Shown: piece by piece, positions 2,317-40,001 of the stretch
How the letters are laid out: each line of letters starts with the position of its first letter
Numbering within the stretch: position 1 is the stretch's first letter
Translations under genes and position numbers: made by a program
Notes under the pieces: generated by a model
Database searches by the model: none
The model's input: the letters and a program-made list of their open reading frames with translations, nothing else
What the model was told of the DNA's origin: nothing
Origin: Escherichia virus TH20
Sequence record: MT446394.1
Length of the DNA: 40,001 bases
Reading direction: 5' to 3' (one strand)

Positions 2317-2385
2317 ACTTAAAGTCCTTGTTATTAGTCTTTCACTTAAAGTCTCTTTGGTCTTTCACTTGGAGTCTTAGACCTT

Positions 2386-2408
2386 GAGTCCTATAGTGAT
2401 AATTAAGT
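2386..2408 (-). promoter_or_regulatory. Phage-RNAP promoter-like site (variant TTAATTATCACTATAGGACTC) about 70 nt upstream of the RNAP gene
   Basis: CACTATAGG core on minus strand, +1 G at 2391; differs from window consensus at -10 and +3 to +6. Confidence 0.45.
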
Positions 2409-2413
2409 CAGAA

Positions 2414-2674
2414 TCACTTGAATATCAGTGGGTTAGCGTGAAGATGGCTGAAGTCACCATGAGTCGTGTGCTTGATGGTTGACCGTTGGTCTATCGCCGT
2501 CCAGCCTGAGACTAAAAGTTTACCATCGTCAGTGATTGGTCGTCCACCATACGCCAGACACATCAGTTCGGACTTATGGCCCTCAGCCATCATGCGGCGC
2601 TGTAAGAACATGTCACGCTGCGCTTGCTCAACACGGCTACGGCTAGAGGGTTTGTTAGTGTATACGGTTTTCAT
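2414..2674 (-). CDS. Hypothetical early protein, 86 aa
   Basis: ATG at 2674 overlaps stop of upstream ORF (TAATG); last ORF of the early operon before gene 1; no family recognised. Confidence 0.5.
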   Translation of the reverse strand: MKTVYTNKPSSRSRVEQAQRDMFLQRRMMAEGHKSELMCLAYGGRPITDDGKLLVSGWTAIDQRSTIKHTTHGDFSHLHANPLIFK

Positions 2675-2871
2675 TACAGTTTGCTCCCAAGAGTTGCTAT
2701 ATCCCAGACGTTCGCTAAGTTGCGCATGAATCGTCCGTTAGGTTGACGTACAGTCCAGCGACCCAGACGTACATAGTTAAATTTGTAGACTTTACGCGCT
2801 TTGTTGATGTCTCTCACCAGCACGTAGGTGATAAGTCCATAGCCGAAGATACCCAGAAGTATCCAGCTCAT
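2674..2871 (-). CDS. Hypothetical early protein, 65 aa, hydrophobic N-terminus then basic tail
   Basis: ATG start overlapping upstream stop (TAATG); N-terminal WILLGIFGYGLITYVLV looks like a TM helix. Confidence 0.5.
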   Translation of the reverse strand: MSWILLGIFGYGLITYVLVRDINKARKVYKFNYVRLGRWTVRQPNGRFMRNLANVWDIATLGSKL

Positions 2872-2960
2872 TAGAATGACCCTCGCTTGATTGCGTCAAG
2901 AAGGCCCCAAGCTATCAGGAAGATGACCGGAGACAGGCATACCCAGTAACCTATATTCAT
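2871..2960 (-). CDS. Hypothetical small hydrophobic peptide, 29 aa
   Basis: Hand translation MNIGYWVCLSPVIFLIAWGLLDAIKRGSF; TAGGAG 6 nt upstream of ATG; stop overlaps next start; below track size cutoff. Confidence 0.3.
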   Translation of the reverse strand: MNIGYWVCLSPVIFLIAWGLLDAIKRGSF

Positions 2961-3030
2961 AGTTAACTCCTATCAATGTAAGTGAAAATCTTTGAGGCCA
3001 CCTATCAGTCGATGACCTCTCGTCTATCAC

Positions 3031-3156
3031 TCAGTACCCGCCTGTCAGCGTTATGGTCAGGCTATGGTGATTAGCCACGTAGCAGGCCCCGCGCTTCATC
3101 ATCTCGTAGCACCCATCGTAGAACGCCTGTTCACTACTATAAGTTATCTGGTACAT
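3031..3156 (-). CDS. Hypothetical early protein, 41 aa
   Basis: Hand translation MYQITYSSEQAFYDGCYEMMKRGACYVANHHSLTITLTGGY; GAGGA upstream; below track size cutoff. Confidence 0.3.
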   Translation of the reverse strand: MYQITYSSEQAFYDGCYEMMKRGACYVANHHSLTITLTGGY

Positions 3157-3158
3157 GT

Positions 3159-3314
3159 TTACTTGTCCTCAGAGTGTAAGCTGTCGTGTATACGCTTGCG
3201 GCCCTCATAGACCGCCTTCAGGTGACGCATAGTCGCATCATGGTTTAACTGCCCGGTCTTGACCATAATCCGGGCGTTAGCGACGTGGTGCTGGCAGAGA
3301 CCATAAGTTACCAT
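3159..3314 (-). CDS. Hypothetical early protein, 51 aa
   Basis: ATG overlaps stop of Ocr-like gene (TGATG); hand translation [51 protein letters not shown]. Confidence 0.35.
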   Translation of the reverse strand: MVTYGLCQHHVANARIMVKTGQLNHDATMRHLKAVYEGRKRIHDSLHSEDK

Positions 3315-3823
3315 CACTCGCAGTCCTCCTCAGCAGCCGCAGGGTCGAACACTACGTTATCGTTGATGTCTTCGACCTGCATGTGAAAACCTTCCTCATA
3401 GAGTTCTTTTGCACATGCAATAGCCTCGTAAAGTGATACAGATGCCTCAATTATCTCGCCTGTTCTAGTGTCAACTACCCAATATTCAGCCTTTTCGTCT
3501 TCCTCCTCAGCCTCAAACCAGACCACATCCGAGCTATTAGACACATCGTTATATAGTGCCTCATAAATGCGAGCTTGCAGTATACGCGTTACGTCCTTGG
3601 TCTCAGGCATCAGCCCAGAGTCTTCAAACTCGTGGTCGATACCATCAGCAGCCATCACCGTGAAGATCTCGTGGTAATAGTGCGGAACCTGACCGTCTAC
3701 GACTTCATGCAGCGCATCGTAATAATCATCACCTTCAGCTATTTCGTCGTACTGAATGCGCTCGTTAAACGCTTCAACAGTTGCAGCTAGCAGCTCATAG
3801 TATGCGTTAGCGTTACGTTCCAT
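3314..3823 (-). CDS. Ocr-like anti-restriction DNA-mimic protein (T7 gene 0.3 homologue) with C-terminal extension, 169 aa
   Basis: Acidic protein; N-terminal 95 aa share [42 protein letters not shown] with T7 Ocr; ATG 3823 preceded by GAGAGGA; first gene after the host-promoter region. Confidence 0.8.
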
Positions 3824-4134
3824 AATTATATCCTCTCAGTTGTTAGTGACTATCAGTCAGAGCCTTCAGATGTAGACTCAAAGACTCTGTAGTTAGTCGC
3901 TATCGGCGCACATTAAGAGTTTATCCAGATTGTTAAAGAGCGTTGAGGTCGTCAACCTCCGAGGTATTCGGTAGTTCCTAACCTTGTCTGTCACCGCGCT
4001 ATAGGTAGTGACTTAGTATCCGACAACCAGACCTTCTTCACTCGGTGAAGCCCGACCTCTCAATTTACTCTTAGTGAGGTGCTTAGAGTGTACCTGCTGC
4101 CAGTCCTTGGTAGCGTCTTGCTGCTTGGTGAATC

Positions 4135-4164
4135 ATACTACTTTAAGTCGTTACTGCTTGTCAA
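4135..4164 (-). promoter_or_regulatory. Candidate host sigma70 early promoter (T7 A2/A3-like): TTGACA, 18-nt spacer, TAGTAT
   Basis: -35 at 4164-4159 and -10 at 4140-4135 on minus strand; flanking AAGTAGACAGCCTGATAAGTC resembles the T7 early promoter region as I recall it. Confidence 0.35.
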
Positions 4165-4276
4165 CTACTTTCTGTCATCTGCCTGTTGTTCGTATGACTT
4201 ATCAGGCTGTCTACTTAACCGGGATGACCCGGCGTCTTCACTATCCGGTTGTTGCCGTGTCGTGTTGATGGAAGCT

Positions 4277-4305
4277 ATTAGGCCCTAGTCTGGACCTATA
4301 GTCAA
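4277..4305 (-). promoter_or_regulatory. Candidate host sigma70 early promoter (T7 A1-like): TTGACT, 17-nt spacer, CCTAAT
   Basis: -35 at 4305-4300, weak -10 at 4282-4277; overlaps a degenerate phage-promoter-like CTATAGG element. Confidence 0.25.
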
Positions 4306-4417
4306 TAGGTAATTTGAAATAATATTGATTGAGCTATCGTCGGCCCCATGGTGTAAGAGGATATAGTCTTTGACTAACATGTCTTTGACCTTAAGTCTAT
4401 AGCCATTGTGTCTATTA

Positions 4418-4485
4418 ACTGTAGGTTTAGACTGTAGGTAGCGGCATTACCGATGGTAGATGACTGTAGGTAGTTAGACTGTAGG
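4418..4485. repeat. Array of four CCTACAGT octamer repeats (minus-strand sense), left-end side of predicted terminal repeat
   Basis: ACTGTAGG on plus strand at 4418, 4431, 4463, 4478; analogous in position to the CCTAAAG arrays of T7. Confidence 0.6.
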
Positions 4486-4499
4486 TAGTGACTCAAGGT

Positions 4500-4689
4500 C
4501 TGATACAGATAGAGACTCAAAGACAGACCCATAGTCCCAACCTATCGTCCTTCCCTAAGCCATAGCCTCTACCTATCGTTGACCTGAAGTCTTTACCAGC
4601 GGTCAAACCTTATGATAGACTGGGGTAGGGCCTTTGGTCTGGACTGAAAGAGGGCCTATGGGGAGACTTGAGGTTCTTGAACTGTGAGA
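4500..4689. repeat. Predicted direct terminal repeat (single collapsed copy); physical left terminus near 4689 on the minus strand
   Basis: Minus-strand TCTCACAGTTCAAGAACC at 4689-4672 matches the conserved left-end start of T7/T3; distal boundary (about 4500) is a guess from similarity to the T7 repeat end. Confidence 0.35.
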
Positions 4690-4727
4690 TGTGGTCTCAA
4701 ACTTTTGGTCCAAAACTCATCGTCACT

Positions 4728-4765
4728 ACTGTAGGCCACAGCCACTGTAGGTCAAGGACCGTAGG
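4728..4765. repeat. Array of three CCTACAGT-type octamer repeats, right-end side of predicted terminus
   Basis: ACTGTAGG at 4728 and 4744, ACCGTAGG at 4758 on plus strand. Confidence 0.55.
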
Positions 4766-4926
4766 TCAGGCGACACTAGGATAGACCAATAAGTAGGATG
4801 ACCCTAAGTGAGCTTCTCTTAAGGTGTTACCTAAAGTCCTTGACTACAGTAGCTAAGGTCAGTAGAGTAGCGTCAGCTATGAACTGACCTTAGGTCTTGC
4901 TTTCGTTGATTGTTACCATGATTGCG

Positions 4927-5085
4927 TTAATTACACTCAGACACCAGAGAACATACGAGAGTCTCGACCCACCCGACCCACTGACTTCCAGCAGTAACGC
5001 CAGCAGCAAGTAGAACAGCAGCAAGAAACCTGTATGTAGCTCGATTGGTCGCCAGAGCTTTAAGTACAGCTTTGGTCTTTGCCAT
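4927..5085 (-). CDS. Small protein at the gene 19.5 position, 52 aa
   Basis: Hand translation MAKTKAVLKALATNRATYRFLAAVLLAAGVTAGSQWVGWVETLVCSLVSECN; GGAGG upstream (10-nt spacer); lies between the rightmost phage promoter and the genome end as in T7. Confidence 0.4.
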   Translation of the reverse strand: MAKTKAVLKALATNRATYRFLAAVLLAAGVTAGSQWVGWVETLVCSLVSECN

Positions 5086-5264
5086 ATGCTACATACCTCC
5101 TGTATCTATGGTCGGTGACTATCTGTATTGGAGGGATTATGATTAATATCACCTCCTTCCATCGGTGCAAGCCTTAGGTAAGAACTAGGAGTCTGCCTCC
5201 TAAGGTCTTGCATAAAGTCTGCATATGTATATTCACTACAGTAATACTATAAGTAACCGGGGGT

Positions 5265-5287
5265 CTTCCCTATAGTGATAGTTAAGT
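5265..5287 (-). promoter_or_regulatory. Phage-RNAP promoter (phiOR position, downstream of large terminase): ACTTAACTATCACTATAGGGAAG
   Basis: Near-consensus 23-mer on minus strand, +1 G at 5270. Confidence 0.7.
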
Positions 5288-5381
5288 CCAAACTCCTTGT
5301 AAAACAGTAGGTTAGACTGGTAGCAACTATAGGTTACTAACTGCGTATTCATGCAGCTTTCACCTATAGTTATTCATTCAG

Positions 5382-7145
5382 CTAGTGGAACGTAACGTAT
5401 GACCCTAGTCCAAGCTCGTCGTCCGTATCGTGAGTTACCCGGACCCCATTGTCCCAGAACTCAGTGTGGATGGACTCGAAGCCTTTCCGTGGGTTCTCCA
5501 TCTGTTCCTCCAGCCACTCCTCAGTGACTTCACGTTCGCCTTTGTTGGCATCCTTAGCCATAGACTCAACGAAGAACTGTACACCGATAGCTAGCGCATC
5601 AAGTCGGTCATCGTGTGCCAAGGCCCCACGTTCACGAGAGATACGTGTCATCTGGTAGAAGAGAGAGTAGATAGGGTTACGAACACCATCCTTATCAGAG
5701 GCCGACTGGTAGTCTTGGACGATAGCAGCAGCGTTAACGATAAGTCGGTGAGACCCCATGATAGGCTCCAGAACGTCACAGATGCGGAGTTCTTTCTGAC
5801 CCTTACTCTTCACTTCAGTTACAGCCGCAGGATGGATACGGGCCGCTACAGGCTTGAATAGCTCAAGGTACATACCATCACCGAAGTTACCCTCAATGAC
5901 GTATTCGTTGACCTTCCACTTACGACCAATCTTAGCCAGCGCTTCAAGCGTAGAGTCTTCATAACCACCCCGCATACCACCAACTTCCATAGCGAAGATG
6001 TAGCCGTTGAGCTGGTACAGTACCGCATAGCCAGTTTCATCCTTACCACGACCACTAGGGTCAATGACCAGAATCTTCTGGGTGTACGAACTGAAGGCAG
6101 AACCTACAGTCTGATACGTGTGGTATGAGTCACCCATGAGTCCAACGTTAGGAACGTCCTCACGCTTGTTCTGAGGGTTTGGCAGCCATTGGTAGACCAT
6201 TGGGCTGGACGCTGGGTCCAAGTCGGCTACGATAAGGTCACGGAGCTTCAGAGGGTACTTCTCAGCATCACTTAGGTTCGGGTTAAGCATGAACTGTAGA
6301 GCGAAGCCGGCTTTACCATAGGACAGCTCACGTTCCTTCAGGTCAGTATCGTCGAATCGAACTTCATCGGTCGGACGCCAGTAGAAGGCCTCAGGGTCCT
6401 CTTCAAGCTCTGCCTGAAGCATAGGAGCCAGACGGTCTCCGTAAGACTGCCAGTCCTTCCTGTCGCGTGGATAACGAGCAGGCCAGATAGTAGTGGTGTA
6501 CCCACGGCCTTCCAACTCACGATACAAGGTCATCTCGTTCTGAGGAGTACCCAGATAGATGATCGTACCTCCCGGCTTCAGGATAGCGTCGAACTCTTTC
6601 ACAAGCTCTGACAGACGGTCTCGTGCGGCCTGAGTCGCTGAGTTGTTTGGAACCTCCACGTCGTCGGCAATCAGGATGTCGGCACGACTACCAGTCAACT
6701 GACCAGTGATACCAACGGACTTAACCGAAGGTGAGTGGTCTGGCTTGGCTGGTCCAACATCGAAGCTGATAACCGCATCTCGCTGCCCCTGCTTAGGTTT
6801 GAGCTCCTGAAGCTGAGGCATGAGGTCGATGATTCGCTTGATGAAGATGGAGTTAGCATCGGCTCGTTCCTTTGAGGCCGACACAATCATGAACTTCAAG
6901 TCTGGGTTGTTCCATAACTTCCAGACCACGAAGGCACACGTAATGAAGGACTTCCCGATACCACGGAACGCTTGTAGGATGAAGCGCCTGTTGCCCCCAG
7001 ACGATAGTTTCTTCGCCATGTCAATCTGACAGCGAGTCGGGACTGGGAGTGACAGAGCTTTCCACAGGACGAACAGGAAGAACACGAAGTCTGCCTTCAT
7101 ACGGGCAGTCATTAGCGCCTGACGCGCCACTAAATCTTTACTCAA
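5382..7145 (-). CDS. Terminase large subunit (T7 gp19-like), 587 aa
   Basis: Co-linear with T7 gp19 ([39 protein letters not shown]); start is TTG at 7145 with AAGGAGG 6 nt upstream, overlapping spanin stop. Confidence 0.97.
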
Positions 7146-7692: not shown

Positions 7693-7956
7693 TTATTGAA
7701 CACCATACCCGGTGTCATTATCTTCCGTAGATGAGAGCACCTTATCGTACTCTGCGTTCAGGGCCTCCATATCAGCCAGAGTCTTCTCGTCGACAGACAC
7801 CTTGCTTAGCACGAAGTTGTGACGAGCCAGTAGCTTCTCAATGGCGTTGTAAAGCTGAGGTGAACGCTTAGTGTCATCCCGCAGGTCTTGCAGCATGAGT
7901 CGAGCACGTTCAGTATCTAGCATCAAGAGGAACTTCTCTAAGTCCATCTGCGTCAT
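7693..7956 (-). CDS. Terminase small subunit (T7 gp18-like), 87 aa
   Basis: Size and position; ATG 7956 overlaps holin stop (ATGA). Confidence 0.8.
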   Translation of the reverse strand: MTQMDLEKFLLMLDTERARLMLQDLRDDTKRSPQLYNAIEKLLARHNFVLSKVSVDEKTLADMEALNAEYDKVLSSTEDNDTGYGVQ

Positions 7957-35773: not shown

Positions 35774-35796
35774 CTGTCCTACAGTGATAGTTTAGG
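35774..35796 (-). promoter_or_regulatory. Phage-promoter-like site with CACTGTAGGA core (phi2.5 position)
   Basis: Upstream half consensus; -3 A to G; overlaps stop of gp2-like gene. Confidence 0.5.
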
Positions 35797-38828: not shown

Positions 38829-40001
38829 TTAAGCGAATGCAAAGTCTGAAGACAAGATGTCTTCGATATTCAGTTTACCTTTCTTCGGAAGCTCTGGCAA
38901 CTTATCGCGCTGGCTCTCATGAAGCTGGTATTCAAACTGCTCATAGAAGTCAAGCAGCACATCGTTGTCTCGGTAGGTCTCGACCATCGTCTCACGGACA
39001 CCACGGAACAGATACTCAGCGTCAGCCGGGATGGTCCCGAAGCTATCATGAATCACTGCGAATGACATCACGTCATACTTGCGATGAGTGTGGACTACAG
39101 TCTTGCGTAGGTGGCTACCATCTTGTGAGTGGACGAAGTTCGGGCTAATGCCTGACTCCTGCTTGTGCTTGTCCAGCTCTTTCTTCGTGCCTTTGTTGAC
39201 GGTAGGCTGAAGGTTGAATGACCCTAAGAACATCAGGTTCAGACGAGTGGTATCCTTCTTGCGGTATTCCTGCCAGACCGGGAAACCATCAGGTGTGACC
39301 CAGTGTACCGGAAGGCAAGGCTTCAGGATTTCACCCGTCTTCTTGTCCTTCACTTCAGCAGCCAGCAGCTTGGCAGCACCTTGAAGCCACTTCATAGCGT
39401 CTACCGCAGCAACTACGGTCACGCTCACAGCTTCCCAAATCATCTTAGCCATGAATCGGGACGCTTGGCTTGGCTCGGTGAACATAGCTCCAGACCCTGC
39501 GTCAATTGCGGGCATCACGATGTCCTCGTAAACTTGGTCTGCGAAGCCGTACTCTTTCGACCCGTAGGCCAGAGTCATGACTGAGCGCTTAGTAACCTTG
39601 CGTGACATACCGTAAGTCAGCCACTGCCGGGCCAGCTCTCGTGTCCCCAGCTTGAGACGTTCGGTAATCTCACCAGTTTTCTTGTCCTCGTGAGTTACCA
39701 TCTCGTTGTCCGTGCCGTTAACCAACAGGACTTTAAGCTCCTCCTCAATGCGGTCAGACACGATGCGGTAGATGTCTTGGACCTTACCGGAAGGCGTCAG
39801 GTTTACTGCATGTCCACCGATGTGATCACGAAGCATCGCGCTGAAGTGCTGAATCCCAGAGCAGGACCCATCGAAAGCTATCGGCAGCGAGCAGGAGTAA
39901 GACAAACCGTGGTGCATTACGCCAGCATACTCGAAGCAGAACGCTAGGAAGCAGAACGGAGAGTCTAACTTACCCCACCACTCAATGCTGTCCATCGGTG
40001 C
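38829..40001 (-). CDS. T7-type RNA polymerase (gene 1), C-terminal 390 codons plus stop; the part above 39194 duplicates 1-807
   Basis: Translation ends ...DILSSDFAFA as T7 RNAP; contains HQESGI.PNFVHSQDGSHLR and IHDSFGT active-site region; stop at 38829. Confidence 0.95.
   Translation of the reverse strand, partial: APMDSIEWWGKLDSPFCFLAFCFEYAGVMHHGLSYSCSLPIAFDGSCSGIQHFSAMLRDHIGGHAVNLTPSGKVQDIYRIVSDRIEEELKVLLVNGTDNEMVTHEDKKTGEITERLKLGTRELARQWLTYGMSRKVTKRSVMTLAYGSKEYGFADQVYEDIVMPAIDAGSGAMFTEPSQASRFMAKMIWEAVSVTVVAAVDAMKWLQGAAKLLAAEVKDKKTGEILKPCLPVHWVTPDGFPVWQEYRKKDTTRLNLMFLGSFNLQPTVNKGTKKELDKHKQESGISPNFVHSQDGSHLRKTVVHTHRKYDVMSFAVIHDSFGTIPADAEYLFRGVRETMVETYRDNDVLLDFYEQFEYQLHESQRDKLPELPKKGKLNIEDILSSDFAFA
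39195..40001. repeat. Window-end duplication, copy 2 (same sequence as 1-807)
   Basis: See copy 1. Confidence 0.9.

Follow-up and report, generated by a model that had tools for sequence, protein, structure and literature searches.

A predicted T7-type genome end with flanking octamer arrays in a wrapped Kayfunavirus assembly

Within the window analysed here, a stretch of 40,001 nucleotides, the region read on the minus strand from 4800 to 4400 is very probably a T7-type genome end enclosed in a wrapped Kayfunavirus assembly. Sequence comparison places a direct terminal repeat at 4689-4511, followed by the motif ATCTGTA and flanked by arrays of a short octamer (Table 1). The starting observation, an 18-mer together with a set of octamers, is confirmed as real and far beyond chance, and a terminus at 4689, a collapsed repeat and arrays equivalent to those of T7 are supported by comparison with relatives. 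The virion DNA is predicted to be linear and about 39,373 bp long, running from TCTCACAGTT/TCTCACAG at 4689 to the end of a second repeat copy near 4511 (...GAGTCTCT). The feature is already known, being a textbook T7-like element of which EcoDS1 and K1F carry nearly identical, annotated versions. T7-type direct terminal repeats, the junction pause site and the flanking short repeats have been on record ever since publication of the T7 sequence.

Table 1. Features of the junction and its surroundings, in window coordinates
Feature	Coordinates	Strand	Basis or remark
Gene 0.3, ocr-type antirestriction, first gene after left end	3314..3823	minus	Pfam ocr, E 1e-30
Host RNA polymerase early promoters	4126..4308	minus	counterparts of 2 of 3 annotated EcoDS1 host promoters
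Left-unique array, four exact CCTACAGT	4418..4485	minus	4485-4478, 4470-4463, 4438-4431, 4425-4418
ATCTGTA concatemer-junction motif	4504..4510	minus	directly after repeat; counterpart of T7/T3 class II pause site ATCTGTT
Direct terminal repeat (predicted), 179 bp, one collapsed copy	4511..4689	minus	end-to-end alignment with relatives' repeats; single copy
Conserved left-end sequence TCTCACAGTTCAAGAACC	4672..4689	minus	unique 18-mer; match to relatives' left ends
Last 25 unique bases before right-hand repeat (TTTGGACCAAAAGTTTGAGACCACA)	4690..4714	minus	identical in EcoDS1, K1F, Vec13, SH3, SH5
Right-unique array, two exact CCTACAGT and one CCTACGGT	4728..4765	minus	CCTACGGT at 4765-4758, CCTACAGT at 4751-4744 and 4735-4728; kept in K1F, Vec13, partly EcoDS1
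Gene 19.5, 52 aa, last gene before right end	4927..5085	minus	ORF list; place and size as EcoDS1 gp19.5, Vec13_53
phiOR phage RNA polymerase promoter	5265..5287	minus	23/23 to annotated EcoDS1 phiOR
Gene 19, terminase large subunit	5382..7145	minus	Pfam Terminase-T7_RNaseH-like (PF22530), E 6e-38
Gene 18, small terminase / DNA packaging protein	7693..7956	minus	Pfam DNA_Packaging_2 (PF11123), E 2e-12

By its sequence the window belongs to a Kayfunavirus phage (K1F/EcoDS1-like, T7 family, Studiervirinae), showing both high nucleotide identity to K1F/EcoDS1-type genomes and collinearity with them. A 24-kb internal query returned TH16, EcoDS1 and others at about 94% identity over 88-90% of its length. 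The junction region was matched by 221 phage records, nearly all from Kayfunavirus, at identities of up to 97% (93-97% for Kayfunavirus genomes). All long ORFs of the window lie on the minus strand. Records labelled Enterococcus phage EFA-1, Acinetobacter phage vB_Aba_01KA and Dickeya phage Monomax also match the junction (window 4200-5400), at 86-92%; since this is an E. coli-type Kayfunavirus junction, their host labels look doubtful.

On the minus strand, TCTCACAGTTCAAGAACC at 4689-4672 is the sole match in 40 kb even with three mismatches allowed (0.03 expected by chance), and it opens with the TCTCA(C/T)AGT start of a T7-type genome end. Comparison with the actual records revealed agreement at 18 of 18 positions with K1F and EcoDS1, 17 of 18 with T3 (TCTCATAGTTCAAGAACC) and 14 of 18 with T7 (TCTCACAGTGTACGGACC); the initial annotation, which had matched this stretch to the left ends of T7 and T3, was approximately right, the agreement being much better with K1F, EcoDS1 and T3 than with T7. 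The first 22 nt from 4689 (TCTCACAGTTCAAGAACCTCAA) are identical in six of six Kayfunavirus genomes with deposited ends, as in EcoDS1 (EU734172) and K1F (DQ111067), and over the first 60 nt the window shows no difference from EcoDS1 and Peacock. When 200 nt from 4689 on the minus strand were used as query, base 1 fell on record base 1 in K1F (two independent sequences), EcoDS1, Vec13, Peacock, Penshu1, PR_Kaz2018, LS2, ECG4 and HC13; a wider search added IMM-002 and Enterobacter phage EV136_1, and base 1 of SH3 and SH5 also corresponds to window 4689.

The ends of these relatives are documented in several ways. The EcoDS1 record carries a 'terminal repeat' at 1-178 and 39075-39252, the Vec13 record a 'long terminal repeat' at 1-179 and 39569-39747, and the SH3 and SH5 records a 'short direct terminal repeat' at 1-184 and 1-191, respectively. 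The Peacock record describes positions 1-179 as a 'direct terminal repeat predicted by PhageTerm', and the ends of Penshu1 are a PhageTerm read-start prediction. The ends of SH3-5 were mapped by run-off sequencing on phage DNA, and the K1F repeat is cited there as 179 bp (PMC4925675). Relatives at 94-96% identity carry PhageTerm or run-off evidence for their ends, and those of the present phage probably lie at the homologous bases. The earlier proposal of a true end near 4689, instead of at the window edges, is supported: this position is base 1 of many independently deposited relatives, and the edges fall inside the RNA polymerase ORF.

For the remainder of the junction, concatemer junctions (right end joined to left-unique DNA) were rebuilt for EcoDS1, K1F and Vec13 and aligned to the window, and all three proved collinear with it over the whole region and on both flanks. 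This alignment supplied the other boundary of the repeat, at about 4511, where the initial annotation had given one terminus only. The predicted repeat also aligns end to end with those of Peacock (179), SH3 and SH5, and it differs from the repeats of its relatives by scattered substitutions (94-96% identity). Exact end duplications were checked at 178 bp in EcoDS1 and K1F, 179 bp in Vec13, 184 bp in SH3, 191 bp in SH5, 160 bp in T7 and 231 bp in T3. As in EcoDS1 and K1F, the repeat (178-179 bp there) is followed by ATCTGTAT, and it is preceded by the same 25 nt, which would adjoin the cleavage site creating the left end. A search for a long inverted repeat or a hairpin across the terminus gave only short imperfect arms.

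The stretch fits a T7-type repeat in being non-coding, within the range of about 150-250 bp and present once per concatemer unit; only short ORFs overlap it. One copy was found in the window, the next best matches being 12-mers at chance level. Bases 1-807 of the window equal bases 39195-40001 with 0 mismatches; the window wraps round a unit of 39,194 bp, and its source is a circularised or wrapped assembly. Since the repeat occurs once per 39,194-bp unit, it appears as a collapsed copy, as had been proposed, and the predicted virion DNA amounts to 39,194 + 179 = 39,373 bp. The EcoDS1 and K1F records are linear with two repeat copies, whereas the window is permuted with one, a permutation that follows from the collapse of the terminal repeat.

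Exact CCTACAGT occurs 13 times in the whole window against 1.55 expected, none of the shuffles reaching 13, and 6 of the 13 copies lie within 340 bp, all on one strand. The seven octamers first reported at 4418-4485 and 4728-4765 stand in coordinates and number; six are exact and the seventh is a one-mismatch variant. Tandem Repeats Finder reported nothing at 4200-5000, because the octamers are interspersed at spacings of 13-32 bp and do not run head to tail. Within the clusters the spacing is 13-16 bp, and T7 also shows 13-bp steps. The proposed analogy with the CCTAAAG arrays of T7 holds by position, one array directly behind the left repeat and one a short way ahead of the right repeat, with 4 + 3 CCTACAGT-type units in the window. 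In T7, 8 exact CCTAAAG follow the left repeat (250 nt), 2 exact precede the right repeat (150 nt) and 3 lie inside it; in the window, 4 exact CCTACAGT follow the left repeat (250 nt), 2 exact plus 1 variant precede the right one (150 nt) and none lies inside. CCTACAGT arrays flank the repeat on both sides in EcoDS1 and K1F as well.

The arrays may take no part in concatemer processing and be filler prone to slippage or recombination, elements of a host-polymerase promoter, or spacing between the repeat and the early promoters, a reading that falls only a little short of probable. The number of copies after the repeat varies freely among close relatives (4 in K1F, 4 in EcoDS1, 5 in Vec13, 5 in SH5 and 7 in SH3), the array indels are of variable length, and the left array of EcoDS1 is longer than that of the window, with extra AACCATAAGTC units. 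Variable short repeats next to the terminal repeat have been described as microevolution in Yersinia T7-like phages (PMC5923468). At 4728-4755 on the minus strand two right-flank octamers form a weak sigma-70-like site (TTGACC-16-TACAGT, 9/12), and E. coli promoter activity of the T7 concatemer junction has been reported in a 2026 preprint. No paper supporting a role of the arrays in packaging or concatemer processing was found in the literature searched, which left out the classical T7/T3 packaging papers, and a full-text search for CCTAAAG returned unrelated primer matches only.

The preservation of the arrays in strand, motif and placement on either flank throughout Kayfunavirus and Caroctavirus speaks against a passive role. 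The two equivalent sites in T7 and T3 are filled by another motif, CCTAAAG, an indication that the presence of such arrays is selected for. In Citrobacter phage CR8 (Caroctavirus), an array of the ACCTACAGT unit follows closely on the left repeat and is annotated as (acctacagtcaac)3; CR8 differs from the window in belonging to another genus, in its regular 13-bp tandem array and in deposited ends about 4 nt off the TCTCA start. The octamer CCTACAGT moreover resembles the terminal sequence CTCACAGT (4682-4689), both ending in ACAGT, more closely than CCTAAAG resembles the T7 terminus; this likeness may hint at a shared recognition element.

The left physical end would be the T at 4689, and for the right end the prediction is 4511 or perhaps a few bases beyond. 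It is rather unlikely, on the alignments, that the ends lie at this junction with a boundary one to several bases off 4511 (for instance a repeat of 178 bp, the K1F length, or of 184 bp, the SH3 length). The boundary is uncertain by a few bases because those deposited for the relatives differ, by up to 5-6 nt: in window terms the repeats end at 4512 (K1F), 4511 (EcoDS1, Vec13, Peacock, SH5) and about 4506 (SH3), and a broader search placed the final bases of K1F, EcoDS1 and CR44b at 4512-4510. However, in most relatives as well as in T7 and T3 the boundary falls immediately ahead of ATCTGT: this motif directly follows the final bases of the repeat (...TCCCT or ...TCTCT) in T7, T3, EcoDS1, Vec13, Peacock, SH5 and the window, while the deposited boundary lies 1 nt before it in K1F and 5 nt after it in SH3. 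These differences may reflect mapping imprecision and not real biology. CR8 was not used to fix the boundaries, as its deposited ends lack the TCTCA start and show an offset of about 4 nt that looks like a mapping difference. A 179-bp repeat ending at 4511 is the preferred reading.

An exact direct repeat at both sequence ends is how many pipelines flag 'complete' viral contigs, but it is exceedingly improbable that the 807-bp redundancy is the true terminal repeat and that the genome ends at the window edges: after re-linearisation at 4689 these edges fall at linear 3883 and 4689, both within an 893-aa ORF (linear 2374-5055) that sits at the place of gene 1 in T7-like genomes and that we take to be the RNA polymerase gene, and are therefore not physical ends, the relatives with deposited ends all start at the homologue of 4689 and none ends at the window edges, and a wrapped sequence seems to have been cut arbitrarily at a length of 40,001. 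Packaging of the headful (pac) or cos type, which goes with circularly permuted or cohesive single-stranded ends and a lambda/P22/T4-type terminase, was likewise rejected, the terminase having a T7-specific nuclease domain and close relatives fixed ends with exact direct repeats.

Directly behind the predicted repeat, TATCTGTA at 4511-4504 has the right place and orientation for the junction motif and keeps six of the seven core bases of (H)ATCTGTT, the seventh being A. It is present in the window and in six of six Kayfunavirus genomes with deposited ends, while T7 and T3 carry ATCTGTT; the EcoDS1 record marks CTATCTGT (177-184) as 'concatemeric junction'. ATCTGTT is the class II pause site at the T7 concatemer junction, where the complex of polymerase and lysozyme pauses and interacts with gp18/gp19 (PMC3276506). 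For the T7 polymerase, any change in the heptamer was reported to abolish class II termination. Given the heptamer ATCTGTA and this intolerance of the T7 polymerase, pausing in the Kayfunavirus lineage would not be assured. The lineage may have altered its pause specificity, or the ATCTGTA motif may serve the terminase instead. Avoidance of ATCTGTW on the sense strand was tested and was not significant (4 vs 9).

The genes and promoters around the junction are arranged as in EcoDS1 and K1F, with the same flanking genes 19, 19.5 and 0.3, and the phiOR sequence is identical to that of EcoDS1. The putative phiOR lies between genes 19 and 19.5 and directs transcription across gene 19.5 towards the junction; a scan of 3700-5400, which takes in the interval from phiOR to the junction, gave no terminator-like site. 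It is one of nine phage-polymerase promoter-like sites (2386-35796), all on the minus strand and built of the core ACTATCAC followed by a TATAGG-like stretch, with starts at 35796, 33159, 27058, 24237, 23231, 18547, 10874, 5287 (phiOR) and 2408; the last (2408-2386) is upstream of the RNA polymerase gene. On the other side of the junction, fuzzy matches to the EcoDS1 host promoters were obtained at 4308-4269 and 4168-4126, and a consensus scan returned TTGACA-18-TAGTAT at 4164-4135. Gene 0.3 encodes 169 aa, equal to K1F gene 0.3. Both subunits of a T7-type terminase, gp18 and gp19, are encoded.

Two further elements were observed in this region. Just downstream of gene 19.5, at 4853-4893 on the minus strand, a hairpin with a perfect 11-bp stem (CTAAGGTCAGT...ACTGACCTTAG) has an RNA fold of -23.5 kcal/mol (z = -3.7); the stem is kept in K1F, Vec13 and EcoDS1, and the loop differs in EcoDS1. 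The lack of a T-run sets it apart from a classical terminator; it may serve as an RNase III or stability element or matter for junction processing, and it leaves the interpretation of the terminus unchanged. In addition, a 52-aa ATG ORF at 4374-4532 on the minus strand spans the repeat end and the octamer array, and further short ORFs occur in 4285-4784. The stretch homologous to 4374-4532 is annotated as 'hypothetical protein' in several records (Peacock CDS 149-244, MZ2340xx). The variable length of the array indels among relatives suggests that these short ORFs are spurious gene calls.

Comparison with T7 and T3 revealed the same plan in a diverged sequence. Shared with the window are the TCTCA(C/T)AGT start, a non-coding repeat with ATCTGT directly after it, arrays on both flanks at a spacing of about 13-16 bp, phiOR between genes 19 and 19.5, and a gp18/gp19 terminase. 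The repeat measures 160 bp in T7 and 231 bp in T3 as against 179 bp in the window; the array motif is CCTAAAG in T7/T3 and CCTACAGT in the window, with three copies inside the T7 repeat and none inside that of Kayfunavirus; and the junction heptamer is ATCTGTT in T7/T3 and ATCTGTA in the window. Beyond the first 18-40 nt or so of the repeat, its last few bases and ATCTGT, the T7/T3 junction sequence is unlike that of the window.

From the observed sequence anatomy, the collinearity with end-mapped relatives, the single repeat copy and the wrapped assembly, a course of events may be proposed by analogy with T7 and T3. Replication would yield head-to-tail concatemers with one shared repeat per junction, and the phage RNA polymerase starting from phiOR (5287-5265) is thought to pause at ATCTGT, at the right edge of the repeat. 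The paused polymerase is in turn thought to help recruit the terminase (gp18/gp19), which would cut at fixed sequences, the repeat being duplicated so that each packaged genome receives a copy at both ends. Such a duplication must take place during packaging, as half of the genomes would otherwise be lost (PMC5923468), and a 2026 review regards the mechanism generating T7-type terminal repeats as still poorly understood. Pausing, cleavage and repeat duplication in the present phage are thus proposed by analogy.

The immediate value of the finding lies in annotation. The record should be re-linearised at 4689 (minus strand) and the 179-bp repeat added at its right end (about 39,373 bp), and gene calls are unwarranted for the small ORFs across 4374-4713. 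The run-off primer used for Citrobacter phage SH3, GCCCTACCCCAGTCTATCAT (PMC4925675), appears by eye as an exact match inside the window repeat, at 4619-4638 on the minus strand, and would lend itself to mapping the ends of the present phage. The case further illustrates that the true termini of a permuted T7-like assembly can be located from the sequence by a reader without tools, and it adds no new mechanism. It is a tentative and on the whole doubtful suggestion that the flanking arrays (CCTACAGT in Kayfunavirus/Caroctavirus, CCTAAAG in T7/T3) and ATCTGTA are functional recognition elements that co-evolved with the terminase or RNA polymerase of each lineage. If they are, the arrays could be auxiliary loading sites for terminase or polymerase, and ATCTGTA could be a class II pause signal of altered specificity for the K1F-type polymerase.
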